This document shows positions 38,856-63,656 of a DNA stretch of 64,000 nucleotides, piece by piece (the first letter of the stretch is position 1; each line of letters opens with the position of its first letter). The notes below the pieces were generated by a model. The model had not been told where the DNA came from and searched no databases. It saw only the letters and a program-made list of their open reading frames with translations. The position numbers were made by a program, and so were the translations under genes. The stretch comes from an uncultured Ignavibacteria bacterium (GTDB taxonomy: Bacteria; Zixibacteria; MSB-5A5; JAABVY01): positions 5,811 to 69,810 of the forward strand of contig CAZBZV010000004.1 of the NCBI GenBank assembly GCA_964496505.1. The letters are read 5' to 3'.

Positions 38856-40652
38856 TCAGCTCTTCTTTCCTTTCTTCTTGGATTTCTTCTTGGCCCTCTT
38901 TTTCCTGCCCTTATCTTGACAGGCTGAGCACAGAGTATGTGTCTCATCTACCCAATAGCATGGATCCCCCATATCATCAACACATGGCGCTGAATCGGTG
39001 CAACCGCATTTCCGGCATATTCCAGGCGTTAAAGATTTTTTCTTCTTAGTCTTATTCTTGCCGGCTGCCTTCTTCTTTCCTGATTTCTTCTTTGTCTTTC
39101 CCGGCGGCTCTTCCTCGAGCTTGTCCGGAAAGATTGACTGGTAGGATTTCTTGGTGAATGGCGGCCATGATTTCGGGCGCTTGATGGTTTCGACAGCCGA
39201 GACTTTGTAACGCCCGAAATCCAGGCCCAAAAGTTTGTCTGTAAAATCGTTCAGGTCCTTTTCGAATTTATTGACCGGTTCATGCCAGATCTTGACCTGG
39301 CTTTCGATAGAAGTAAGATACTCAAGCATTCCATCCCTGCACTGATCAATGACCATTGATCTGAGCTTTTTGGTTTCGCCGTTATTATTTGCAAATGCCT
39401 TCCATCTTTCATATCCCAAATAATCCTTGGCGCCAGTACCATAGGAAAGCAAGAATCTCAGCATATTCAATACTTCAAATGGGTCATCGCCTGAGAAGAA
39501 TTTACAGGACTTAAGCTTGCGGATGTGATCATCCAATTGGCTGATTATCCAGACAAAGCGCCTGATCTCGAGCTTGATTTCCTTTTCCTCCTGGGTCATT
39601 GGGCCGATCTTTTTACCGGAATTCTCACCCGCCGTGGCTGGTCTCTCGGGTTTTATCCAGGACAGTTGCCCTGCAGCTCCGCCATCGGCTATAATTACAG
39701 GTATAGCGCCCCTAAAATCTTTGGAGGTCTCTTCATAATCAAACCTCGCAAGCACTGGAGCCGGTAAGGTCCTGCCTGGTATTTTCCCTGGATAATAGCC
39801 TTCTCGGGATATCAGCTTGAGATTCTTGTGTTCGGCGCTTAGTTCGGTGTATTTTTTCTGAATAAAGGCATCCAGCTTTTTCGTATAGCATCCGGCATCC
39901 AGACATTGCTCATCGCGCTTAACAGCTTTTTCGGTCAGATCTTCGTGGAATAATTCAGGCTGCCGGCCGGAACGCTTGGGACAGTTGGTGCAGGCCCCCG
40001 CTTCCGGAAGCAGTGTGTCATCATTCAGATCCCAGGGCGCAGACCTCAAGGTCTGATGGTATTCGGACAAAAATTCTCGTATCTGATATTCGGTAATCAG
40101 TTCATCAGGGATGTAAGAAACTTCCTGGAATATCTCATCCTGAACATCTTCATTCCACTTGGCCACAAGCTCGAGAGCCGAGACAGTAATCAGATCGGCG
40201 TTTTCTTTGAGCCAATCCTTCCATTCCTTCGAGAGCTTCAATAACTGCGCTCGCCTGGCCACGAACTGCTGTGTCTTTCCCAGCTCCGCGGCAGCTTCCT
40301 CATAATTCAGGCCGCGATCGAGTAAGATCTGAATCGCCTGGGCCTCCTCGAAAGGTTCGAGGTTTTTGCGCTGCAGGTTCTCGGTTACGCGTATGGCCTG
40401 TGCCTTCATATCATCAGCCTCGACAACCTCGGCCCTGATCTTGGCCTCTCCGAGAGATTTGATTGCCGCGAGGCGCCGATTGCCGGCAATCAGGTCATAT
40501 TTGGTCTTACCCTTTTTGCGGACAATGATGGGATTTAGAAGGCCGACCGCCTTGATGTTCTTGGCCAACTCCTCGACGGAAGCCTTGGTCACCTTCCGGG
40601 CATTGTCCTTTCCGATACTGATGCTCTTAACATCGATTAACTGTGTACTCAT
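38856..40652 (-). CDS. ParB-like nuclease domain protein with a C-terminal Cys-cluster (zinc ribbon) and a polybasic tail
   Basis: N-terminus KYDLIAGNRRLAAIKSLG...IRVTENLQRKNL (ParB box). C-terminus CRKCGCTDSAPC...CYWVDETHTLCSACQ followed by KGRKKRAKKKSKKKGKKS. Confidence 0.65.
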   Translation of the reverse strand: MSTQLIDVKSISIGKDNARKVTKASVEELAKNIKAVGLLNPIIVRKKGKTKYDLIAGNRRLAAIKSLGEAKIRAEVVEADDMKAQAIRVTENLQRKNLEPFEEAQAIQILLDRGLNYEEAAAELGKTQQFVARRAQLLKLSKEWKDWLKENADLITVSALELVAKWNEDVQDEIFQEVSYIPDELITEYQIREFLSEYHQTLRSAPWDLNDDTLLPEAGACTNCPKRSGRQPELFHEDLTEKAVKRDEQCLDAGCYTKKLDAFIQKKYTELSAEHKNLKLISREGYYPGKIPGRTLPAPVLARFDYEETSKDFRGAIPVIIADGGAAGQLSWIKPERPATAGENSGKKIGPMTQEEKEIKLEIRRFVWIISQLDDHIRKLKSCKFFSGDDPFEVLNMLRFLLSYGTGAKDYLGYERWKAFANNNGETKKLRSMVIDQCRDGMLEYLTSIESQVKIWHEPVNKFEKDLNDFTDKLLGLDFGRYKVSAVETIKRPKSWPPFTKKSYQSIFPDKLEEEPPGKTKKKSGKKKAAGKNKTKKKKSLTPGICRKCGCTDSAPCVDDMGDPCYWVDETHTLCSACQDKGRKKRAKKKSKKKGKKS

Positions 40653-40670: not shown

Positions 40671-41618
40671 TCAATATTCCTCCTTTATGATTTCCATTGC
40701 CCGGTCGTAACCGTACTCGATCCCCGCATTGATCTGCTTTCTGTCAAAACTGAGGGTGTCGATTACTTCATGCTCCGGAGCTATAACTGTGAACTTGATC
40801 TTGCGATATTTTTCACCCACGCAGTTGGAATCTACCATCTGATTGATAAAATTCATGTAGGACAGATCTTCGTTGTAGATCTCATTGAGCGCCATGGAGA
40901 GCGACCGGGTCCCGATATCCAGTATATTGCCCTTGTATTCCCAGCTCTCGATATCAAGCGGGCTGCATTCAATCAGAATGATGTAATCAGCTCCGGCATC
41001 GAGGCCCTCTTTTAGCGGCGTCATATTTCGAACACCGCCATCAAGATAATGCCTGCCGGCAATCTCAACAGGCGCCGCATATCCAGGCATACAGCAGCTG
41101 GCATATATGAAGTCATGGGGATGCGCATTTACACCGCGGCCATCAGGAGTCTCGACAGTACCATTGCTGATTGCGATCGTGTAATACTTTCCGTCCTCAA
41201 GGCAGACTACGCCGGAACGGGCGGGGATTTTGAATTTTGATATGTCAGCATATTCACCTATAAGTCTGCGTAGCGGAGAGAAGTCGTATATGCTTGTAAT
41301 ATCGAATGTGGCCAGGCCGAGCTTTGACCAGAGATACTTCCAACCGATGTCGGTGAAACTGTGGGCTTCGCGGTAGATGTCTTTTTGGCGAATTGATCCC
41401 CAGATTCGCTCCATCATCTCGTAATCCTGCATGGCCACAAATACCATCTGCAGGTTGCCGGTGGATACACCGGAAACGCCGGTTATTTCAAAGCCTTGAT
41501 CGAGCAAGGCCTGAATGGCTCCAACCTGGAAGCAGCCCTTGGCGCCGCCTCCGGAGAGTACCAGCCAGATCTTCATATCATCTATTTCGAATTCAATCAT
41601 ACCGATTCTCCCAGTCAT
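40671..41618 (-). CDS. Patatin-like phospholipase
   Basis: Oxyanion motif LSGGGAKG, nucleophile elbow GVSTG (GxSxG) and the catalytic DGG triad (YLDGGVRN). Confidence 0.75.
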   Translation of the reverse strand: MTGRIGMIEFEIDDMKIWLVLSGGGAKGCFQVGAIQALLDQGFEITGVSGVSTGNLQMVFVAMQDYEMMERIWGSIRQKDIYREAHSFTDIGWKYLWSKLGLATFDITSIYDFSPLRRLIGEYADISKFKIPARSGVVCLEDGKYYTIAISNGTVETPDGRGVNAHPHDFIYASCCMPGYAAPVEIAGRHYLDGGVRNMTPLKEGLDAGADYIILIECSPLDIESWEYKGNILDIGTRSLSMALNEIYNEDLSYMNFINQMVDSNCVGEKYRKIKFTVIAPEHEVIDTLSFDRKQINAGIEYGYDRAMEIIKEEY

Positions 41619-41869: not shown

Positions 41870-42754
41870 TTAGCATTCCGGAAAACTCCTTTCCTGGCAT
41901 CCTTCAGGCCATTCGCTCATGTCGTGGCTGACCCTGCCGTCAATCTCTACCTGCTTGACGAAGCACGGCACTCCGGCCTCTTTGCACTGGTCAACTATTG
42001 ATTCAATCCATTCGAGCTTACAGGGACGGCGTTTCGGGCCGGATTCACAGCCGACAATTACCCAATCAAGTATTGGGGTTGGATTTTTGCATAGATGATG
42101 ATCCCAATGTATATACATGTCTTTCCGTGAGTATCCGCAACCTTGACATCTCAAATAATCTTTAACATCAATCTCCCCCAGCATTGGCTCTATGCTGACG
42201 AATTTAACAGCAGCCGGAACCTGCAACAGAATCGGAATGCGTTTGTCGGCCTGCTCTTGATTCTCGGCTGTGACACCAAGCCAGATATGATGCAGATATT
42301 CCTCTGGAATTTTGCTCCGGGTCTCGAGGTTTGTTCCCGGCATAAACACCGCGCCGTCTCTTTTCAGATGCTCATAATATTCCAGCATTCTCTGCGGCCG
42401 TTTGGTTAGCAATATTATAGTTTTCTTTTGATTGCGTACCCATGCAAACTGCCTGAAACATCTATCCAGAATATCAAATGGCACATTCTCGTGAAAAATG
42501 TCTCCCATGCTTCCGATGAATATCTTTTTTCCGGCCGGAGCTTTTCGTATTTGTTCAAGTGCCGGTCTATGAAAAGCAACCTGGCCAGTCCAACCACATT
42601 CATTAATTACAGTTTGGTACTGTGGCTTTCCCATTGCCTTAAGTCTCTTGGCCATTCGTTCAGCATAACAATTTTGACAACCTGGGCTGACCTTAGTGCA
42701 GCCGACAATGGGGTTGATGGTCATGTCAGTCCATTCAATCTTGCTCTTTGCCAT
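41870..42754 (-). CDS. Phage Gp37/Gp68 family protein (DUF5131)
   Basis: The N-terminus MAKSKIEWTDMTINPIVGCTKVSPGCQNCYAERMA is the family hallmark. Confidence 0.7.
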   Translation of the reverse strand: MAKSKIEWTDMTINPIVGCTKVSPGCQNCYAERMAKRLKAMGKPQYQTVINECGWTGQVAFHRPALEQIRKAPAGKKIFIGSMGDIFHENVPFDILDRCFRQFAWVRNQKKTIILLTKRPQRMLEYYEHLKRDGAVFMPGTNLETRSKIPEEYLHHIWLGVTAENQEQADKRIPILLQVPAAVKFVSIEPMLGEIDVKDYLRCQGCGYSRKDMYIHWDHHLCKNPTPILDWVIVGCESGPKRRPCKLEWIESIVDQCKEAGVPCFVKQVEIDGRVSHDMSEWPEGCQERSFPEC

Positions 42755-43199
42755 AAATTGTCCCTTTCAGCAATACACTCAACTCTGCCGCGATCTTCCT
42801 GATTTCATGGTCTGGAAAATTGAGCAAGTTTTCGTATTCTATCGATATGAATTGTGGTTTAATGTTGAGCTTATAACTGCCGTTTCTGTCAGAAACAATC
42901 AGGCCGCCCTCAGGATAAATCTTAAATGTGTCCTGAATGCCATTGCAATCCACTTCCTTTTTGAGATTGTATATGTATCTGGTCTGGCAATCCCCGCAAT
43001 CAAGCTTCTCTTTGTGGAGCCAGCCGCTGGCATCTTCATAAGCCCAAGTCGATGTGACAATGGCTCGATAAGCCAGCTTCGTTAAATAGGTAAAGCTCTT
43101 TTGGGTCAAGAATAAATCCTTATCCAAGAAACGGATGTGAAATCTCAGGCCGCTTCCTACATATTTGGGTTTTCCGATAATATTCAATTCCTCACTCAC
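42735..43199 (-). CDS. Hypothetical protein
   Basis: ORF from the track only. Confidence 0.3.
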   Translation of the reverse strand: MSEELNIIGKPKYVGSGLRFHIRFLDKDLFLTQKSFTYLTKLAYRAIVTSTWAYEDASGWLHKEKLDCGDCQTRYIYNLKKEVDCNGIQDTFKIYPEGGLIVSDRNGSYKLNIKPQFISIEYENLLNFPDHEIRKIAAELSVLLKGTIYGKEQD

Positions 43200-45022
43200 G
43201 CCAATTCCTCCGGAAACAATACTTCCTGTTTGGCCCGGACTTCCCGCCCAGGCAGATAGTCTATAACTTCAAATGTGTTATGAAGCCGGCCCATGTAATT
43301 ATTGAAGGCCCCACCGCCTTCCGCATATCCGAGAGTCCTGGCCAGCTCCTCTCTGCTGATACTGTCCGGGTATATCTGAATCAAATACTCGAGGATCTTC
43401 TGGAGTGGAGCTTGCCTAATTATCTTCAGCCAGCCGCGATGCAATTCCTCAACTCCGGCAATCGGCTCGACCATGCCGGCGGCTTCCCTTCCGGAGTCAG
43501 TCAGCTCGACTTTGCCGCCCTCCGGATAATCGATGTAACCGCCAGACCGAAGCCTGCCGAGAAGGTTATTGAAAGCCCCGCCTTTCGGACTATACTCTGC
43601 CTTGGCCGCGACCATTTCCTTGCTGGGTTTATCTATGCCCAGGGCTTCGAATGATGCTATGGCCTGGAGGACGCGGCGTTGAGGATTGGAGAGTTCAGAA
43701 TTTACAACTGAAGGTAATTTCTTAATCGGTCTCTCCGTGAAATTCTCAACTGTAGATCTGTCCTGAAGGTCGTTGGCTATTGATTGGCCGCGATCAGACG
43801 CTAACCCCTCCATACGATCGAGCAGTTGCCACGGCCTTAGAGACTTTTCCGTAAGCTCCTCGACGTCCTTGCCAATTTTCTGGCTCATTAAATGTATGGC
43901 CTGGAGCGTATTCTCAATTTCACCGCCTGCCTTCTTCAATTCATTTTGCAGAATCCGGATTTGCTTTTTCTGAGCCTGAATTATCGGCCCATGATTACAT
44001 GGCGCCGGGGTATCCTTTTTCAAAAGAGTATTTTCGCGCTTAAGTGCGGACAGTTCTTTCTTCAACTCGACCATATCCTTGGCCCGCTTCTCTGCCTGCT
44101 GGGGAATATCCTCAAGTTTCTCAATCAGTTCTCTGATTTTGCCGGTAGCTTCCGGATGAGTTTCGATGTGCTGTGTTCCGATCTTGGGATGGGACGATTC
44201 AACATCACCGACCTTAACCAGGACAATATCGTCAACCGGAATATATCCCTGGGAGCCTTCGTGTATCCGGAAGGCAGGGCCATAGCAGTGGAATTCCCCG
44301 GGCTGGAGCTTCCGCAGCGCCAGGCTCTCTTCCCTCGAGACAAATCCCAGCTCGTCTACAGCCCGCTTCCGATCGATATCCTGAATAGTCCTGCCGATCA
44401 TCTTATTGCCAAGTTCCGCCGCGGCATCCTTATTCAGCTTGGCCAGTCGCTGGGTTGCCATGATTGTACATATCCCGCGTTTGCGTCCTCGAGTGGCCAA
44501 GTCGATTACTGCCGCTGCGGATTCCGCTTTGCCCTTTTCCGGGCAGATTAAATGCGCTTCGTCCAATACCACCAGAACTGGATGTCGGTATTTGCGCGGC
44601 GCACTGATCAGGGCTTCTGAGAATGCTTTAACGTATGCAATCCGCTCATGTTTTTTCAGTTCGTATAGATCAAAGATGCAGGATGCATTGAACTCGAGAA
44701 GCTTTTTGGCCAGGAGCTTCACTGATTTCAAATCGGCCGGAATATCCCCACCCTTGCCGGCAATGATGTAATCGAACTTTTCTCTGAGTGTATGGAATTC
44801 ACCTTCCAGGTCGATTACCAGTTGCTGGATCCTGCCGTGTGACTGCTCGAGGATTCTCCGGATAAGCCAGGACTTCCCGGCGCCGCTCATGGCCTGGATC
44901 ATGAGACGGGTTTCGGTTAATGTCGCCAGGTCAAGCCCGACCGTTTTATTGTCATGCAGCCCGAGATTTATCATCTTTGCCCTTTGTGATTTGAGTTGGA
45001 ATTTTCTGATCATGCTGGCCAT
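43196..45022 (-). CDS. HerA/DUF87-like P-loop ATPase with two C-terminal winged-helix-like repeats; start uncertain (45022 or 44974)
   Basis: Walker A QAMSGAGKSWL, Walker B VLVVLDEAHLI and a downstream ATQR motif. The C-terminal tandem repeats each contain GGAFNN(L/Y)(L/M)GRL. The track start at 45187 overlaps the upstream zinc-finger ORF. Confidence 0.55.
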   Translation of the reverse strand: MASMIRKFQLKSQRAKMINLGLHDNKTVGLDLATLTETRLMIQAMSGAGKSWLIRRILEQSHGRIQQLVIDLEGEFHTLREKFDYIIAGKGGDIPADLKSVKLLAKKLLEFNASCIFDLYELKKHERIAYVKAFSEALISAPRKYRHPVLVVLDEAHLICPEKGKAESAAAVIDLATRGRKRGICTIMATQRLAKLNKDAAAELGNKMIGRTIQDIDRKRAVDELGFVSREESLALRKLQPGEFHCYGPAFRIHEGSQGYIPVDDIVLVKVGDVESSHPKIGTQHIETHPEATGKIRELIEKLEDIPQQAEKRAKDMVELKKELSALKRENTLLKKDTPAPCNHGPIIQAQKKQIRILQNELKKAGGEIENTLQAIHLMSQKIGKDVEELTEKSLRPWQLLDRMEGLASDRGQSIANDLQDRSTVENFTERPIKKLPSVVNSELSNPQRRVLQAIASFEALGIDKPSKEMVAAKAEYSPKGGAFNNLLGRLRSGGYIDYPEGGKVELTDSGREAAGMVEPIAGVEELHRGWLKIIRQAPLQKILEYLIQIYPDSISREELARTLGYAEGGGAFNNYMGRLHNTFEVIDYLPGREVRAKQEVLFPEELA

Positions 45023-45215
45023 ATCCAAGGATGTGATAGCGGCGAGATTCTCCGCACTTGCCGCAAGATGGGCTGTGCTTGTTAATTCCCAATTGCTGCA
45101 TTTCCCGGAATGTCCTCGAATCTTTGTGACCGCATTTATAGCAGCCGTAGTGGATTGTGGGATTCTGGGGGTCTGCCTGGGTATCAAATCTTACGCTTCT
45201 ATATGCGGGATGCAT
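44952..45215 (-). CDS. Hypothetical zinc-ribbon protein
   Basis: Motifs CYKCGH....CGKCGE. Confidence 0.35.
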   Translation of the reverse strand: MHPAYRSVRFDTQADPQNPTIHYGCYKCGHKDSRTFREMQQLGINKHSPSCGKCGESRRYHILGYGQHDQKIPTQITKGKDDKSRAA

Positions 45216-45976: not shown

Positions 45977-46594
45977 TTAATCAAGTCTTACAAACCTCGG
46001 TGTCCCATCCGGATAATGCTCCAGATGGTTCTCATCAACATTATCAAAATCAATAGTAGCAATGGCCTTTGCCAGCGCAAGCAGACCCCCATTGCAAATG
46101 GTAAATCCCTTCTTAATGTATTTCTGCATTCTCTGCATCGTAGAGAGTGGCTTCGGTAATGAGTTAATTACCAGCTTACGAGCGGCCAAATCTATGAAAA
46201 ACGTATCGTGATGGATTACTTCAACCGTGTCTACAGCGGCACAACATACAGTGAAATCAAAATTGTCAATCGTTTCCTGGGGGCCCGGGAAATAGATTTT
46301 TATAAGCTGGAAATGATGCTTTTTATACCTATAATCTATGGAATTCGTAAAATCCCCGATTAATTCGGCTCCCTCATTATTCCAGACTTTTTCATTGAAA
46401 TACTCCTTTGCCCTCTCGAGCTCGTATTCGTCAGAAAAATAGATATCTATATCACTGTGGGGATATCCATAAGAAAAAAAGTCTCTCAATGCGCCTCCTG
46501 CAATCCAGCAGTTTCTGCCACAACCGGCCTGACCAAGCAACTCGCCGAGAATAAGATTATCAAAATAGCTTACACATCTATCTAATTGCTCCAT
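45977..46594 (-). CDS. Minimal Pol-beta-superfamily nucleotidyltransferase related to the poly(A) polymerase/CCA-adding enzyme head domain
   Basis: Segment WIAGGALRDFFSYGYPHSDIDIYF fits the GGxxRD-(8-9)-DxD motif of the PolyA_pol/CCA head domain. At 205 aa it lacks the neck, body and tail domains. Confidence 0.55.
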   Translation of the reverse strand: MEQLDRCVSYFDNLILGELLGQAGCGRNCWIAGGALRDFFSYGYPHSDIDIYFSDEYELERAKEYFNEKVWNNEGAELIGDFTNSIDYRYKKHHFQLIKIYFPGPQETIDNFDFTVCCAAVDTVEVIHHDTFFIDLAARKLVINSLPKPLSTMQRMQKYIKKGFTICNGGLLALAKAIATIDFDNVDENHLEHYPDGTPRFVRLD

Positions 46595-46912: not shown

Positions 46913-47121
46913 GGTATCATCTCTCCGCTCTGCTTTTGCGCCTCAGCCTTGGCTGCTTCAATGCTTTTAGCGATGCCAGAATAGAGTCTGCCCTTGGAAT
47001 CCCGATAATCCCACTGAACCCTCATTCCCTGAGCAATCGGCGAGTAATATTCCTCATAGGCGAATTGCCCTCTGTCATTAGTAATTGTGCAGCCATTCTT
47101 ATTAAGATTGGTTTCCGTCAT
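46909..47121 (-). CDS. Hypothetical protein
   Basis: ORF from the track only. Confidence 0.3.
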   Translation of the reverse strand: MTETNLNKNGCTITNDRGQFAYEEYYSPIAQGMRVQWDYRDSKGRLYSGIAKSIEAAKAEAQKQSGEMIP

Positions 47122-57157: not shown

Positions 57158-59464
57158 ATGGCCATACAATATTATTCTCATAGCGAAAATTTATGCGGGG
57201 ATCACAATCCATTGTCTGATCATCTCATTGGCGTGGCCAAGCTCGCCCGAGAATTTGGTACTCCATTAGGAATAGAAAAGGAATCCGAGCTTGCCGGAAT
57301 TCTGCATGACCTTGGTAAATATGGTGATTTATTTCAGAAACGTTTACGCGGTGAAATTAGAGGTATTGATCACTGGTCTGCCGGAGCCTGGACTGCCATT
57401 CAAAGATATAAGCAAAATGGCATAGCCTCTGCCCTGGCAATCCAGGGACACCATATAGGCCTGCAGGAGGTCTCTAAGGATGCCCTGCAAGGAATGGACT
57501 TGCAAGCATTATCAGAGCAGCATCCATTAAATCTGAGGCTGTCTGAACAAGATTTGAATAATCTGATTTATCGGCTCAAGGCAGATGGCTTAACACTGCC
57601 AAATGATTTAAATCATTCACTATTTGATATTAGCGAGTCGAATAAAACCCCAGCCTCATCGATGCTTGACTTTCGAATGCTGTATTCCATTCTTGTAGAT
57701 GCTGATTATTTAGATACTGAAGCACATTTCAATGCAGAATCAGCAGGCATAAAAAACTATCGAAAACAAGGACAATCTATCAAATCTCATGAGGCATTTA
57801 ATATTCTTCTATCATATATTAAAATCCTCGCAAAAAACTCAACTTCAGCTATAAAAATGAATGACTTGCGAGCAAAGCTGCTTGAAGATTGCTTATCAGC
57901 CGCTGAACGCCAAACCGGATCATTTAATCTTTCAGCCCCAACAGGCTCAGGAAAAACACTTAGCATGATGGCATTCGCCTTAAAGCATGCTATCAAGAAT
58001 GATCTAAGAAGGATTATTATTGTCATCCCTTATTTGAGCATTATTGAGCAAACTGCCCGGGTGCTGAAAAACATATTGTCTGACAAATTCGGAAAAGATT
58101 ACATTATCGAAGATCATAGTCTGGTTGAATCAGGAGCAAGCAGTAATGTTAATTCCGATTCACGGCAAGCAAAACTGTTATCAGAGAATTGGGATGCTCC
58201 AGTAATAATCACAACCAGCGTACAATTCTTGGAATCAATCTTCAGCAACCGACCGTTTAGATGTCGCAAGCTCCACAGAATGGCCAAAAGCGTTGTTCTT
58301 TTTGATGAAGTTCAGACACTTCCAACCCATGCGATTATTCCAACGCTTGCAACCCTCTCACGCATTTGTGAGAGATATGGTTCTTCTATAGTCTTCTCTA
58401 CGGCGACTCAGCCCGCTTTTAATCATTTGCATAAACATGTTTCTGTTCTCTGCAACCAAGGTTGGGAACCATCGGAAATTGTAAATGATCATCAGTCCAT
58501 GTTCAAGAGGGCCAGTCGAGTGAGTGTCTCTTGGCCTAACGAGAATGAAAGAGTACCATGGGAACAGTTGGCTGGGATGCTGACTAAACACTCCCAGGTA
58601 CTGTGCATTGTCAATTTAAAACGGCATGCCCATACTCTTATTGATGAATTGGCAAAAACCGATAATACAGGGTTGCTGCATTTATCAACAAACATGTGCC
58701 CTGCCCATCGCGCGACGGTTTTAGAGCATGCCTCTCAAATGCTTGGAGAAGGCTCCCAATGCAGGCTCATATCCACTCAATGTATTGAAGCCGGAGTAGA
58801 TATTGATTTCCCGGTCGTTTACAGGGCATTCGGCCCTCTCGATTCTATAGCCCAGGCCGCGGGCAGGTGTAATCGCAATGGCAATAATGATCTGGGGAAT
58901 GTGACTGTCTTTATCCCCGACGAACCATGGAGTAAATCATATCCAGATGGAGCTTATAAACAGGCAGCAGAAGTAACAGCTTTAATATTGAAAAGATGCG
59001 GAACATCGAAAGCTGATATCACAGATACAAATCTTTTCGAAGATTATTTTCGGGAGCTTTATTCTATCAGAAATATTGGAAATGATAAAACGGAATTAAC
59101 AATAGCAATAAAAAGACTTGATTTTGTGACCACCGCTAAGAAATACTATGTTATTAAGAATCAGGATACTATCAGGATTTTGGTACCATATGATTTGAAG
59201 GACTATTCACAATTAAGAGAAGCATTGGATGAGAAGGGTCTTACGAAGGAATGGATAAATTCTGCACAATACCATAGCATTAACATTTTCAGGCCGAAGC
59301 CGGATTCAAATGCATGGAATTACCTCGATCCCGCCCCTATAGGGCCAAGAATAAAACATAATAGAGAAAAATCAGATAGCTGGTATGTTTATTTGGATGA
59401 GGAACATTACGATGCAATTAAGGGATTGCTGATACCCAAAGACACTGAATACATAATTGCTTAA
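57158..59464 (+). CDS. cas3: Cas3 HD-nuclease/helicase (type I)
   Basis: HD motif ILHDLGKY. Helicase Walker A SAPTGSGKT and the DExQ box LFDEVQ. Confidence 0.9.
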   Translation: MAIQYYSHSENLCGDHNPLSDHLIGVAKLAREFGTPLGIEKESELAGILHDLGKYGDLFQKRLRGEIRGIDHWSAGAWTAIQRYKQNGIASALAIQGHHIGLQEVSKDALQGMDLQALSEQHPLNLRLSEQDLNNLIYRLKADGLTLPNDLNHSLFDISESNKTPASSMLDFRMLYSILVDADYLDTEAHFNAESAGIKNYRKQGQSIKSHEAFNILLSYIKILAKNSTSAIKMNDLRAKLLEDCLSAAERQTGSFNLSAPTGSGKTLSMMAFALKHAIKNDLRRIIIVIPYLSIIEQTARVLKNILSDKFGKDYIIEDHSLVESGASSNVNSDSRQAKLLSENWDAPVIITTSVQFLESIFSNRPFRCRKLHRMAKSVVLFDEVQTLPTHAIIPTLATLSRICERYGSSIVFSTATQPAFNHLHKHVSVLCNQGWEPSEIVNDHQSMFKRASRVSVSWPNENERVPWEQLAGMLTKHSQVLCIVNLKRHAHTLIDELAKTDNTGLLHLSTNMCPAHRATVLEHASQMLGEGSQCRLISTQCIEAGVDIDFPVVYRAFGPLDSIAQAAGRCNRNGNNDLGNVTVFIPDEPWSKSYPDGAYKQAAEVTALILKRCGTSKADITDTNLFEDYFRELYSIRNIGNDKTELTIAIKRLDFVTTAKKYYVIKNQDTIRILVPYDLKDYSQLREALDEKGLTKEWINSAQYHSINIFRPKPDSNAWNYLDPAPIGPRIKHNREKSDSWYVYLDEEHYDAIKGLLIPKDTEYIIA

Positions 59465-59498
59465 TCATACACATTTAATTAAATCTATGGGAGGAATC

Positions 59499-60248
59499 AT
59501 GAAATCAAAGGATCAGGCCTTGGAGGTCTGGGGCGATTTTGCCTGCTTTACAAGGCCGGAGATGAAAGCGGAACGATTCAGCTATCCTGTGATTACGCCT
59601 TCTGCGGCTCGCGGCATTTTCGATGCCATTTACTGCAAGCCGGAGCAATTCCGATGGCAAATCACAAAGGTTGAAATCATATCCTTACCAAGCTATATCG
59701 CTTTGAGGAGAAATGAGGTTAAGGAGAAGATTAGCACAAAGGCAATTCAGGCTTATATCAAGGGTAAAAAAGACCCTGTGCCAATATTTGCTGACGGTGA
59801 TATCAGACTAACAGGATCTGATGTCAAGGGCCGTACACAGAGGCAAACCATGGCATTGCGTGATGTGCACTATCATTTACATGCCGAAATTCGTCCCTGG
59901 CCGGAGTATGAGGATCGCATTCAGGATTTTGAGGCACAATTCAGGCGGAGGGCATCTAAGGGGAAATGTTTCCAGCAGCCATATTTCGGATGCCGTGAAT
60001 TTCCCGCATTTTTCCGGCTAATCGAACTCCATGAGGAGCAGTCAAAAACAATTGATCAAGACTTGGGGGATATGGGATGGATGGTATATGATGTTTTTGA
60101 TCTGGCTAATAAAGGCAAAAGCGACAGCAAACCTTTTATCAGCCTTTTTAAACCATCCATTGAAAACGGTGTATTGCATATTCCATCATACGACTCTGAT
60201 GAAGTTATCAAACCTAATCAGGGAGGTTACGATGCTGCATCTACTTAA
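59499..60248 (+). CDS. cas5c: Cas5c (Cas5d) of type I-C
   Basis: N-terminus MKSKDQALEVWGDFACFTRPE is the Cas5c hallmark. Start moved to 59499, which has a GGGAGG RBS 5 nt upstream; the track start 59457 overlaps cas3. Confidence 0.85.
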   Translation: MKSKDQALEVWGDFACFTRPEMKAERFSYPVITPSAARGIFDAIYCKPEQFRWQITKVEIISLPSYIALRRNEVKEKISTKAIQAYIKGKKDPVPIFADGDIRLTGSDVKGRTQRQTMALRDVHYHLHAEIRPWPEYEDRIQDFEAQFRRRASKGKCFQQPYFGCREFPAFFRLIELHEEQSKTIDQDLGDMGWMVYDVFDLANKGKSDSKPFISLFKPSIENGVLHIPSYDSDEVIKPNQGGYDAAST

Positions 60249-61989
60249 GGATTATGCTGAGAGACACGGCATTGTGGCTGAACCGGGTTTCACGAGAATG
60301 GATATTAAATGGGCAATTATCTGCGATGATTCCGGCCAATTTGAAGAGATTATTGAGTTGGGCAATCCGGAAGATAAAAGAAACACAGGTATTACATTTT
60401 TAAAAGTCCCAGATATCAGCTTTACCAGCGGTGGGAAAAAGATGAGCAAGCCCCTGTGGGAAACCGCGAAGGTGATCGCTTTTCTTGGCTCCCCAGCTGA
60501 TGATGAGAGTATTAAACCTAAGCATAAATACTTTATTGACCAGCTAAAATCAGCCTCGGAATACTATAGCCCTCTGACCAACATATCTGAGCAGTTAAGT
60601 AATTCAGGTACTGTCGAATGGCTAAGATCGAAAATGGACGATCTTGGAATAAAGCCAACTGATAAGATCACATTTAAAATCGGCCCGGAGTATATAATCG
60701 ATCTTGAAGATTGCCAGGAATGGTGGAGGAAAATTCATAAATCCTCGAAGAAGAAAAAGGCCAAAAAGAAAAGCGTGGATGAAATGCTCTGCCTTATGAC
60801 TGCGGAACAGACAAGGCCAGCACTAATCCATAACAAAATAAAGCAACTCGCCAATGTTGGCGGGCAGGCCTCGGGTGATGCCTTGATTAGCTTCAAGCAG
60901 GAATCTTTCCAGTCATTTGGACTCCCAAGTTCAGCCAATGCCCCTGTTTCTGAAGAGAATATGACCACTTATACTCAGGCTCTAAATGTGCTCATTAATG
61001 AATCCGGCAGAAAGTTGGGAGATACCAAAATTGTCCATTGGTTCAAAAATCGAATCAGGCCTGAGGATGATCCGCTTAGCTGGCTTGTCGAGTCAGAGGA
61101 GATTAGCGAGCTAAATGCTCAGCAACGGGCAAAAGAGATGCTTGACAGCATCAGATCCGGAAAAAAACCGGAATTGCATGATAATTTCTACTACGCCTTA
61201 ACTGTCTCTGGTGCGAGCGGAAGGGTCATGGTCCGTGACTGGATGGAAGGCCAGTTCTCGGATTTAGTCGAGAACATAAACACATGGTTCGATGATCTAT
61301 CGATTGTCAATCGAAATGGCTCTGGCCTTGCACCTCCGCCGAAATTCATATCCGTTCTCGGGGCATCGGTCAGGGTATTGGATGATTTGCATACACCATT
61401 TGTCGCAAAAATGTGGCGGAGGGCTCTTAAGGGTGAGACCTTCCCTGCCTTCGCTCTGGCTGGAGCAGTCAAGAGAATGAAGATTGATATCATCAACGAT
61501 GAGCCCGCCAACCATGCCCGGGCAGGTCTGTTAAAAGCATATTTTGTTCGAAAAGAAAGATTTTATGGAAAGGATATAACTATGCAACCTTATCTGAACG
61601 AGGATCATCCTCATCCCGCATATCATTGCGGCCGATTACTTGCGGTTCTGGCAGCGTTACAGCGCAGAGCCCTGGGAGATGTTGGGTCCGGTATTATTCA
61701 GAGGTATTACACATCGGCATCCGCAACCCCCGCCCTTGTGCTTGGTAAACTCACCAGCGTCAGCCAGCATCATCTGAATAAAATTGAATCTGGAGGACTG
61801 AAGTACTGGTATGAAGGGAAAATTGCTGACATCTGGAGCAGGATCAAGGACCAGATTCCCGGAACGCTTTCTCTCGAAGAGCAAAGCCTCTTTGCTCTCG
61901 GATATTATCAGCAGATTGCCGATCTGCGAACCCGCAAAGTTGAAGCTATTGAAACAAATGAAGAATCAGGGGAGGTAGAAAATGTCTGA
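60232..61989 (+). CDS. cas8c: Cas8c (Csd1) large subunit of type I-C
   Basis: Position after cas5c and before cas7c. Start set at [13 protein letters not shown] (60232), which has a GGGAGG RBS; the track start 60031 overlaps cas5c. Confidence 0.8.
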
Positions 61990-62932
61990 ACCAATTAAAA
62001 ATCGTTATGAATTTATGCTGCTTTTTGAGTGTGAAAATGGAAATCCCAATGGCGATCCTGATGCAGGCAACGCGCCACGCATAGATCCGCAGGACTTACA
62101 TGGGCTTGTCTCAGATGTTGCACTGAAAAGGAGGCTACGCAATTATGTTCAAATTGCAAAGGGCAATAAAATGCCCTATTCCATCTTCATTGAGCACTCC
62201 ACAAATCTAAACACAAAAATAGTAAGATCACATGAAGAAACAGAAGGCGGTTTAGGAGATGGTTCAAAGGGTGCCAAAAAGGAAAAGGTGGATTTGGCGA
62301 AGCGCTGGATGTGTGATAATTTCTTTGACATACGGGCTTTTGGTGCAGTAATGAGCACAGGCCCGAATTCAGGCCAGGTTCGCGGTCCTGTGCAGTTCTC
62401 TTTCGCACGTTCAGTCGATCCAGTGCTTCCACTCGATCTGTCAATAACTCGCATGGCTGTGGCGGAAAATGTCAAGGGTGCAAAATCAAGCGCTGACTAC
62501 GAAAAATGGGAAAGCGAGCAGCCGGAAGACAAGCTTCGGACAATGGGACGGAAAGAATTGATACCCTATGGCCTTTACGTGGCCAAGGGTTTTATCAGCG
62601 CTAATCTTGCGCAAGAGACTGGATTTGGCGATAATGATCTTGAGCTTTTGTGGGAAGCATTATTGAATATGTATGAGCATGATAGGTCTGCCAGTAAAGG
62701 ACATATGGCGGTCAGAAATCTTTTCATATTTAAGCATGTTGGTACTGATACTGACCAGGAACAGCGAGTCAGGGAAGCCATACTTGGATGCGCCCCCGCG
62801 CATAAATTGTTTGATCTTGTAAAGATTAATAAGAAAGAAGATGTTAAAGCCCCGCGAAAATATGTGGATTATGATGTCAACATAGATGAGGGTAGCCTGC
62901 CCTCAGGGGTAGAGTTGATAAGGAAATCGTAG
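61982..62932 (+). CDS. cas7c: Cas7c (Csd2) of type I-C
   Basis: N-terminus [24 protein letters not shown] is the Csd2 hallmark. Confidence 0.9.
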
Positions 62933-62933
62933 C

Positions 62934-63656
62934 ATGTTTTCTGAAGATGATCTGCTGCCGATTTCCGCTCTGCAGCATCTAGCATTCTGCAAAAGACAGT
63001 GGGGATTAATGTACCTCGAGGGTATATGGGCTGAGAACCTTCTCACTGTGGAAGGTTCTCAGCTTCATGAAAAGGCTGACGAGCCCTCACACCAAATACA
63101 GGATGGTGTCTTGATTGCCCGGGGTCTAAAGCTTAGATCATTGAGAATCGGTCTGATTGGCAGAGCTGATGTCGTTGAATTTCATAATATCCCGCTCAAA
63201 CACTTGTTGGCTGGGAGAGAGGACAATGTATCAAATACACCAAACATATTCGATTTGATTAAACGGGAAATGGACATTGTCCCCTTCCCTGTCGAATACA
63301 AACACGGTAAGCCTAAAATCGATTTATGCGATGAAGTCCAGCTTTGCGCGCAGGCATTGTGCCTGGAGGAAATGCTGGAGATCGAAGCGCCGCGGGGGGC
63401 GATTTTCTACGGAAAACCACGGCGTAGAACAGGTGTCGATTTCGATGACAAATTGAGAAGAGCAACAGAAGAATATGCTGCCGAATTGCACCATTTGACT
63501 CTCCTTGGCAAAACACCTATTGCCAAATACGAAAAAAAGTGCAAAAGCTGTTCCATTATGGATTACTGTCTGCCAAAATCTGCCGGACATGGAAAAAGCG
63601 CCAGGAAATATATCTCCGATCAGATTGATCAGCAGTTGTCTGATACCGAGGATTGA
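62934..63656 (+). CDS. cas4: Cas4 RecB-like nuclease with an Fe-S cluster
   Basis: An N-terminal Cys plus the C-terminal CKSCSIMDYC cluster. About 240 aa, located between cas7c and cas1. Confidence 0.85.
   Translation: MFSEDDLLPISALQHLAFCKRQWGLMYLEGIWAENLLTVEGSQLHEKADEPSHQIQDGVLIARGLKLRSLRIGLIGRADVVEFHNIPLKHLLAGREDNVSNTPNIFDLIKREMDIVPFPVEYKHGKPKIDLCDEVQLCAQALCLEEMLEIEAPRGAIFYGKPRRRTGVDFDDKLRRATEEYAAELHHLTLLGKTPIAKYEKKCKSCSIMDYCLPKSAGHGKSARKYISDQIDQQLSDTED

Follow-up and report, generated by a model that had tools for sequence, protein, structure and literature searches.

The 64,000-nt stretch of contig CAZBZV010000004.1 considered here (hereafter the window, to whose positions all feature coordinates refer) comes from an uncultured Ignavibacteria bacterium and consists of bacterial genome with a myovirus-like prophage, which carries TerL (large terminase), portal, protease, capsid, sheath and tape-measure genes. 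Our subject is a gene in a minus-strand block of this prophage. Judged from its sequence, the product is a HerA/FtsK-superfamily motor followed by a helical linker and two winged helix-turn-helix (wHTH) domains, and it belongs to a family that occurs mostly in phages and has no conserved partner gene. The gene and its parts are the following.

43196..44974, minus strand: complete gene, through the stop codon, of the 592-aa protein made up of HerA-like ATPase, linker and tandem wHTH (open reading frame (ORF) and start analysis, database protein P0001, family alignment)
44189..44974, minus strand: ATPase core, aa 1-262, predicted FtsK/HerA-type P-loop fold without HAS barrel (Pfam DUF87, PADLOC HerA and mad8, AlphaFold2, Foldseek)
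44870..44890, minus strand: Walker A, aa 29-35, MSGAGKS (invariant residues in 40 homologues)
44555..44578, minus strand: Walker B, aa 133-140, VLVVLDEA (D138, E139 and A140 invariant; aligned to the HerA Walker B of 9x1l and 4d2i)
44447..44488, minus strand: GRKRG (candidate arginine finger) and ATQR (sensor), aa 163-176 (invariant residues, HerA alignment)
43799..44191, minus strand: HPKxG and PPxPTxKIK..L.KLADLP.EAE segment, then long helices forming a linker or coiled coil, aa 262-392 (alignment, model)
43700..43798, minus strand: disordered, variable tether, aa 393-425 (low pLDDT, unconserved length and sequence)
43457..43699, minus strand: wHTH repeat 1, aa 426-506, recognition helix GGAFNNLLGRL (repeat comparison, profiles, models)
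43199..43456, minus strand: wHTH repeat 2, aa 507-592, recognition helix GGAFNNYMGRL (repeat comparison, profiles, models)

The longest minus-strand ORF, 43196-45187, opens with TTG and would encode 663 aa, and the first-pass annotation had let the gene run from the 45187/45215 side. Start-codon analysis picked out ATG 44974, which is preceded by an AAAGGG ribosome-binding site and gives the 592-aa product. This product is identical to P0001 (100% identity and coverage), and the homologues in our alignment all begin at the equivalent residue. The exact match and the shared start together define the gene as 43196-44974 (minus strand), and by these comparisons its true start is almost certainly ATG 44974, not TTG 45187. 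The N-terminal ~350 aa earlier assigned to the ATPase shrink to a catalytic core of ~262 aa, the larger figure having taken in 71 residues upstream of the real start.

The core matches Pfam DUF87, the HerA central domain (PF01935), over residues 9-72 with 32.7 bits against a gathering cut-off of 23.2; matches to the other P-loop families AAA_22, Zot and TrwB stay below cut-off. The PADLOC HerA and mad8 profiles match at ~1e-13. The nearest PDB proteins by sequence are all HerA (phmmer E 8e-6; family profile against 9x1l, E 1.5e-10). In an AlphaFold2 model built from 40 homologues, with a mean predicted local distance difference test (pLDDT) score of 88.6 and values >90 across the ATPase core, the best Foldseek match was Sulfolobus HerA (4d2i, E 1e-12), and HerA-NurA, Sir2-HerA and DUF4297-HerA were among the further fold matches. 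The core fold also covers nearly all of STIV2 B204, a minimal packaging NTPase (target-normalised template modelling score, TMt, 0.73), and the best matches among the viral structures of BFVD were of this same minimal packaging type, none extending past the ATPase core (query-normalised score, TMq, 0.36 or less). No Pfam match to FtsK_SpoIIIE (PF01580) was found at E 0.01 or better, the PHROG FtsK-like profile matched weakly (E 0.0014), and PHROG 2666 ('terminase large subunit') matched at E 9e-21 over its P-loop part only (profile positions 319-515 of 555).

Across the 40 homologues, S30, G31, G33 and K34 of Walker A, D138, E139 and A140 of Walker B, the stretch G163-R-K-R-G167 and the triplet T174-Q-R176 are all invariant. 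In HerA the 'GRKfG...sQRp' segment holds a trans-acting arginine finger, and it is with this segment ('eGRKfG...sQRp') that the GRKRG and QR motifs align. Since Walker A already lies at residues 29-35, preceded in the model by two short strands and one helix only, the protein lacks the HAS-barrel N-domain by which HerA proper is defined, and scores against the NCBIfam HerA equivalogs are far too low (best NF040819, 37.5 bits versus a cut-off of 970). We conclude from these comparisons that the core is a minimal HerA-clade ATPase that keeps all catalytic residues and is not a HerA orthologue. The earlier placement in the HerA/FtsK superfamily is thus borne out by DUF87, by the HerA structure matches and by the invariant motifs, and no characterised packaging or replication ATPase was matched, an identity that the first-pass annotation had kept in view.

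At the end of the core, H262 and P263 are invariant in the family alignment and are followed by a conserved PPxPTxKIKxxLxKLADLPxEAE segment. The model then has helices at 278-287, 290-320, 329-367 and 372-392, and the linker shows weak matches to coiled-coil segments of Rad50, JetC and LmuB. Residues 391-425 have pLDDT values below 50, and both the length and the sequence of this tether vary across the family.

The last 167 residues are a duplication. The sequence GGAFNN, found at aa 465, recurs with a period of 89 aa at aa 554; the repeats share 44% identity over 43 aa in a pairwise BLASTP comparison (E 3e-8), and their family profiles align with a probability of 99.65% (E 4.5e-25). When a hidden Markov model is trained on repeat 2 alone, it recovers repeat 1 from all 120 homologues tested, and the duplication can also be traced at the DNA level, with a spacing of 267 nt. 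The duplicated wHTH-like units proposed in the first-pass annotation are therefore real, with no lack of self-similarity, but the unit is a whole wHTH of ~85-89 aa and not a segment of ~55 aa. Modelled alone, the C-terminal region forms two helix-helix-helix-hairpin units packed together (pLDDT 94.8; predicted template modelling score, pTM, 0.87). Its profile gave weak matches to DtxR-like (5zr4, E 3.9e-4) and MarR wHTHs, at E 4e-4 to 5e-3; HrcA_DNA-bdg was matched by 13 of 32 members and Mrr_N by 12, and the family search gave no FtsK-gamma match to the C-terminus. Fold matches to STK19 (a tandem-WH protein), IdeR-DNA complexes, SelB and MarR were likewise weak (E 3.5e-3 or worse). In the DtxR alignment the GGxFNNxxGxL motif coincides with the recognition helix. 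On the strength of profiles and models, each repeat is a wHTH fold predicted to bind DNA, and the pair is a true duplication.

The two recognition helices of a protein vary in step. Among the 120 homologues, the recognition-helix regions of the repeats are 65% identical within a protein and 42% identical between proteins (repeat 1 against another protein's repeat 2), and within-protein identity exceeds the mean between-protein identity in every one of the 120. Matched pairs include SGGYFNNLG/SGGYFNNLG, SSAYTNNVS/SSAFTNNVS, GGTFGEYL/GGTFGEYL and GGGFNNPKG/SGGFNNPKG. The flanking segments of the repeats have hardly any such excess (31 versus 25% and 41.5 versus 39.5%). As the excess is limited to the reading surface, functional co-evolution explains it better than gene conversion of whole repeats. 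This co-variation suggests that both readers follow a common, phage-specific specificity: the two wHTHs would read the same kind of repeated DNA site, and the specificity would vary between phages.

The family is large. At E 0.001 or better it comprises over 1,070 matching protein clusters, the best 120 of them full-length with 40-50% identity, and the ATPase-wHTH fusion is kept in >1,000 clusters at 35-50% identity. IMG/VR has relatives on 183 viral contigs, and GTDB has them in 92 species genomes, several archaeal bins included; the GTDB phyla include Zixibacteria, Ignavibacteria, Chloroflexota, Patescibacteria, Planctomycetota, Acidobacteriota, Gemmatimonadota, Proteobacteria and Bacteroidota, and the closest relative (82% identity) is in a Zixibacteria metagenome-assembled genome. 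The GenBank phage collection holds three matching records only. One is full-length: MW202482.1, a complete 43-kb genome with its own large terminase, whose homologue is 26% identical and annotated 'hera helicase'. That name and 'DUF87 domain-containing protein' are the only ones that databases give to the family, and in the literature on HerA/DUF87, FtsK-HerA phage ATPases, DUF5131 and capture systems we found no description of an ATPase-linker-tandem-wHTH architecture.

The gene lies in a minus-strand block whose first part encodes, in order, an SbcD-SbcC fusion, an Lsr2-like protein, DUF3873, a small nucleotidyltransferase, a 208-aa protein without assignment, a zinc-ribbon ORF and the ATPase; a 154-aa protein without assignment, DUF5131, a patatin-like phospholipase, ParB-like and DnaD-like proteins, a loader-like AAA ATPase, RusA and the packaging genes come after it. 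No minus-strand terminator-like site was found between 41.5 and 47.5 kb. The neighbours with a bearing on what follows are these.

30052-32250: TerL of the prophage
36089-36904: loader-like AAA ATPase, adjoining the DnaD-like gene
36840-37796: DnaD-like replisome organiser, ~6 kb from the ATPase gene
38856-40652: ParB-N plus ParB-HTH protein, 598 aa, in which a segment rich in Cys resembles a zinc finger and the C-terminal tail is very rich in lysine
40671-41618: patatin-like phospholipase (Pfam E 2e-24)
41870-42754: DUF5131 protein with an N-terminal Cys motif, the commonest neighbour of the ATPase gene and usually 1-3 genes downstream of it (21/142 loci)
44952..45215, minus strand: 87-aa CxxC-x22-CxxC ORF (zinc-ribbon-like), outside the conserved unit, overlapping the ATPase start by 23 nt
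45977-46594: small Pol-beta-type nucleotidyltransferase-like protein (PHROG E 3e-28 to 1e-10)
47118-47432: 104-aa ORF with an 'Lsr2-like DNA bridging protein' PHROG match (E 1e-10) in a 14-residue N-terminal segment only (GPYCKFCNRRCFTA-like, two stretches)
47375-51031: 1218-aa ORF, fusion of an SbcD/Mre11-like phosphoesterase with an SbcC/Rad50-like coiled-coil ATPase

To survey the surroundings of the family, ORFs were called and neighbours clustered by BLAST, in 75 and then in 142 non-redundant loci, and ~270 flanking proteins were put through Pfam and PHROG censuses. No conserved partner gene emerged across the 142 loci, nothing exceeding 15%. Within 8 genes of the ATPase gene we counted DUF5131 at 21 loci (15%), ParB-like genes at 12 (8%), integrases at 10 (7%), ASCH and N6/N4 methylases at 8 each, SNF2 at 6, YqaJ and reverse transcriptase at 5 each, and DnaB and TerL at 4 each, the TerL genes being 4-8 genes downstream. 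The censuses describe a variable early region, with flanking genes of replication, recombination and modification types (RecT, YqaJ, DnaB, PIF1, SSB, RuvC, methylases, ParB and SbcCD). A nuclease or effector partner such as NurA, Sir2 or DUF4297 was neither conserved in the 142 loci nor matched among the neighbours in the window, and the ATPase does not act as a HerA-nuclease pair. The first-pass annotation had noticed the missing nuclease here; the observation holds, and it is a property of the whole family and not a quirk of this locus. At the window locus PADLOC yielded single-gene matches only, with no partner genes and no complete system.

Individual neighbours fare no better as partners. 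The 154-aa gene, whose sequence overlaps the stop codon of the ATPase gene, is common to close relatives only, and at another locus, L002, the corresponding position is taken by an unrelated gene. The 87-aa ORF, which the first-pass annotation had set before the ATPase as a zinc-ribbon protein, does exist; its family matches are sub-threshold (FmdB-type, 16.1 bits versus a cut-off of 31.3, and the SprT zinc ribbon). A HMMER scan of 1.84 billion representative proteins gave it no real homologue, returning the ORF itself and two weak matches to long repetitive proteins. In L084, the relative with 82% identity, the ORF is missing and the genes that would flank it are ~95 nt apart, and the conserved neighbourhood that the annotation had proposed to look for is not found, CxxC...CxxC ORFs showing no enrichment beside homologues. 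We therefore ruled it out as a partner of the ATPase; the evidence leaves an insertion particular to this lineage, or else a spurious ORF. The SbcDC fusion named in the same annotation is present in the window, but the link extends to only ~4-5 related loci: L084 also has the fusion (1213 aa), L002 has separate genes, and a 326-aa gene (window 50985-51965) accompanies SbcDC at these loci. The Lsr2-like label of the 104-aa ORF is probably misleading, given the short segment that it covers. One paper places DUF5131 in the radical-SAM superfamily. The patatin and nucleotidyltransferase genes flank the ATPase in the early block and are of types often seen in conflict systems.

In FtsK, the gamma domain reads KOPS, and in Streptomyces TraB a C-terminal wHTH reads clt repeats; such readers load or orient a ring pump on short repeated motifs. 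The window protein would resemble these in being an FtsK/HerA-superfamily ring pump with a C-terminal winged-helix reader, a likeness of analogy and not of homology, because FtsK_SpoIIIE and FtsK-gamma are unmatched. Unlike FtsK and TraB, it has no membrane anchor and carries two DtxR/MarR-type wHTHs per chain, and its family occupies phage early regions, not division or conjugation loci. With HerA (archaeal HerA-NurA, bacterial Sir2-HerA and DUF4297-HerA) it shares the ATPase clade and the Walker A/B, GRKxG and QR motifs; it differs in lacking the N-terminal HAS barrel and any nuclease or effector partner, in adding the long helical linker and the C-terminal tandem wHTH, and in scoring far below the equivalog cut-offs. 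The compact core without an accessory N-domain recalls the packaging NTPases of the STIV2 B204, A32-like, PH1 and corticovirus kind, which, however, come from membrane-containing double-jelly-roll viruses and have no linker or wHTH pair, whereas TerL, portal and sheath mark the window prophage as a tailed phage. Finally, each repeat has the wHTH fold of DtxR/IdeR, MarR, HrcA and STK19, with GGxFNNxxGxL on the DtxR recognition helix. DtxR, MarR and HrcA are homodimers, whereas the two wHTHs here are covalently in tandem and fused to a motor, and the similarity is weak (profile E 4e-4, Foldseek E 3.5e-3 or worse).

We favour, at a probability of roughly 0.45, the reading that the protein is a ring translocase or helicase that is targeted by DNA sequence and takes part in early phage DNA metabolism. 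Since both wHTHs carry the same kind of recognition helix, the two, packed compactly together, would bind at a repeated DNA site, and the ~130-residue helical linker with its flexible tether would join this reader to the HerA-clade P-loop ATPase. The ATPase keeps every catalytic residue, among them the candidate trans-acting arginine motif that a ring oligomer would be expected to have; the ring, loaded beside the site, would spend ATP on moving along duplex DNA or on unwinding it. The gene would be expressed with the early, co-directional genes of recombination, modification and replication, and its product would most likely remodel or process the DNA of phage replication or recombination. 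The data show the domain layout, the catalytic motifs, the duplication, the co-variation of the recognition helices, the want of a conserved partner and the setting in a phage early region; that the protein forms a ring, binds DNA specifically and translocates, and what it does for the phage, we infer. Several points weigh against it. wHTH domains are also able to make protein contacts; no DNA target was found; a repeat search found no iterons in or near the ATPase gene; the window and L084 share no repeated 10-12-mer despite identical recognition helices; the neighbourhoods are too variable for assignment to one pathway; and the weak PADLOC HerA and mad8 matches, like the DUF5131, patatin and nucleotidyltransferase genes close by, are equally compatible with a role in conflict, as defence or counter-defence. 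A bolder form of the proposal, which we think unlikely, would make the family a type of phage DNA motor not recognised before, in which a co-evolving wHTH pair, covalently attached, directs a HerA/FtsK-type ring to repeated sites specific to each phage, and which would serve in many temperate phages as an origin-recognising initiator-helicase or as a site-specific loader for recombination-dependent replication; we know of no FtsK/HerA superfamily member in either role.

A neighbouring alternative, which we consider doubtful, is that the protein is an origin-binding replication initiator-helicase, its tandem wHTH binding the origin and its HerA-type ring melting or unwinding it. Phage P4 alpha and SV40 large T antigen, in which a helicase is combined with an origin-binding domain, would be its analogues, and it would be the first replicative initiator from the FtsK/HerA class. 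At locus L171 the fusion gene is followed by one small ORF and then by an IstB/DnaC-like loader, the usual position of an initiator, and at L170 it stands between a PIF1-like helicase and SSB; MW202482.1 has no annotated initiator, primase or replicative helicase, and a fast-evolving, phage-specific DNA specificity is typical of initiators. Yet the window prophage already has a DnaD-like organiser and a loader-like AAA ATPase ~6 kb off, DnaB comes within 8 genes in ~4 of the 142 loci, adjacency to a loader or helicase is rare, and no AT-rich block accompanies the gene, inside it or beside it, any more than iterons do; nor, to our knowledge, does the FtsK/HerA superfamily contain a replicative helicase. 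The replication/recombination motor of the first-pass annotation agrees with the gene context but is too vague a description for a prophage that already has a DnaD-like initiator and a loader-like ATPase. A further alternative makes the gene a conflict module, which we rate as improbable. It would serve the prophage in defence against other phages or plasmids, or in counter-defence; foreign or host DNA would be recognised through the wHTH pair and then captured, stripped or blocked by the motor, a mechanism proposed for HerA/FtsK 'capture' systems. PADLOC HerA and mad8 are indeed the best non-Pfam profile matches of the protein, DUF5131 matches the PADLOC candidate-defence proteins PDC-M41B and PDC-M30B (E 3e-62), and the same block encodes the patatin-like phospholipase and the small nucleotidyltransferase. 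Moreover, fast-diversifying wHTH domains next to HerA/FtsK motors are a described theme of defence systems (PMC12839542, PMC10853773). Against this stand the lack of any conserved adjacent nuclease or other effector in the 142 loci and of PADLOC partner matches among the neighbours, the orientation of the gene, which is that of the early lytic genes and not of a separately transcribed moron, and a stable architecture with a well-conserved ATPase over dozens of phyla. For the anti-defence factor that the first-pass annotation had offered we found no supporting evidence.

The last alternative, an FtsK-like pump for segregation, concatemer resolution or accessory packaging, seems to us very unlikely. 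Such a pump would shift phage DNA or clear it out of the way, be it for partition with a ParB-like protein, for recombinase activation, or ahead of terminase, and the combination of motor and wHTH would follow a logic shared with FtsK gamma and TraB. ParB-like genes lie within 8 genes at 12 of the 142 loci, in the window 2.5 kb downstream of the ATPase gene; integrases are near at ~10 loci, TerL follows at 4, and both PHROG 2666 and the STIV2 B204 fold point towards packaging. However, each of the ParB, integrase and TerL associations is below 10%, as is typical of any early-region gene, the PHROG match is confined to the P-loop part, and the FtsK_SpoIIIE and FtsK-gamma families of Pfam go unmatched. 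We rejected the gene as a packaging ATPase: the prophage has its own TerL and portal genes, besides those for protease, capsid, sheath and tape measure, and therefore the ATPase gene does not encode its packaging enzyme; canonical packaging genes are likewise present in the complete phage MW202482.1.

HerA/FtsK motors are known with nuclease partners in repair and defence, as septum and conjugation pumps, and in capsid packaging. The family described here would be a fourth arrangement, a partner-less motor of tailed phages with its own tandem reader, whose specificity is apparently diversifying. With >1,000 clusters in dozens of bacterial phyla, its target sites and activity would give a function to a common unannotated phage sequence, potentially a new phage route to starting or processing DNA replication, or a programmable sequence-targeted translocase.

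Variants of the architecture are few. In the human gut phage MT835519.1 (L172), 5830-7164 encodes a related ATPase (37% identity over the core) with a short C-terminal tail, single-wHTH-like by eye, in place of the linker and tandem pair; this locus also has a ParB-like gene, at 2364-3857. Downstream of the L172 ATPase are 415- and 925-aa proteins with many repeated HTH and Cys-motif units. Actinobacterial plasmids carry distant full-length relatives only (24-27% identity), and Sphingobium/Sinorhizobium chromids an ATPase-only relative, which adjoins a phosphotyrosine phosphatase gene at the one locus inspected; as a clue to function these plasmid and chromid relatives proved uninformative.

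A profile search also returned stand-alone tandem-wHTH proteins, which we considered as a free reader module and found to be mostly gene-calling artefacts. Three of them, P0189, P0180 and P0122, are fragments of full-length ATPase-wHTH genes at L170, L171 and L166. The genes at L170 5876-7570 and L171 5675-7486 are single full-length ATPase-linker-wHTH ORFs mis-called as fragments, either through an internal start or, at L170, through an opposite-strand ORF called over the ATPase part; at L166 6937-8672 the same full-length gene is broken by two frameshifts. L169 may be a true split gene, and L167 is the only tandem-wHTH locus without the ATPase. P0163, from a 2-kb contig, is an apparent DUF5131-wHTH chimera.

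In 23 of 58 long contigs the ATPase gene lies in the outer 10%, above chance. We rejected this bias as a signal of genome termini; at least in part it reflects assembly breaks in tandem repeats, which in related phages lie 0.6-9 kb upstream of the gene. Eight contigs start inside such an array. All the periods are divisible by 3 and so suggest coding repeats, for example 27-nt units encoding nonapeptides such as SAASSGDRS, and hexapeptide repeats occur as well. The upstream tandem repeats are at these places.

L056: 1-118
L045: 1-173
L115: 8682-9193
L153: 6862-7137
L083: 5015-5275
L018, L032, L036, L092, L112 and L114: at the contig start

Two further features of the window lie outside the early block around the ATPase.

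34395-34438: perfect 22-bp tandem duplication, two copies of TTTTGTCCATCTTTGGGGGAAA, in the gap between a 57-aa ORF and a 212-aa gene that precedes the packaging genes
57158-63656: type I-C CRISPR-Cas genes of the host beside the prophage, with Cas3 (HD and helicase) at 57158-59464, Csd1/Cas8c at 60031-61989 and Cas7 at 61982-62932

None of 100 shuffles gave two matches to the 22-bp unit at up to 3 mismatches, and no equivalent array was found in L084; the duplication could be a regulatory or pac/cos-related site. The G+C content falls from ~0.48 to 0.42 across the junction near 52-56 kb.

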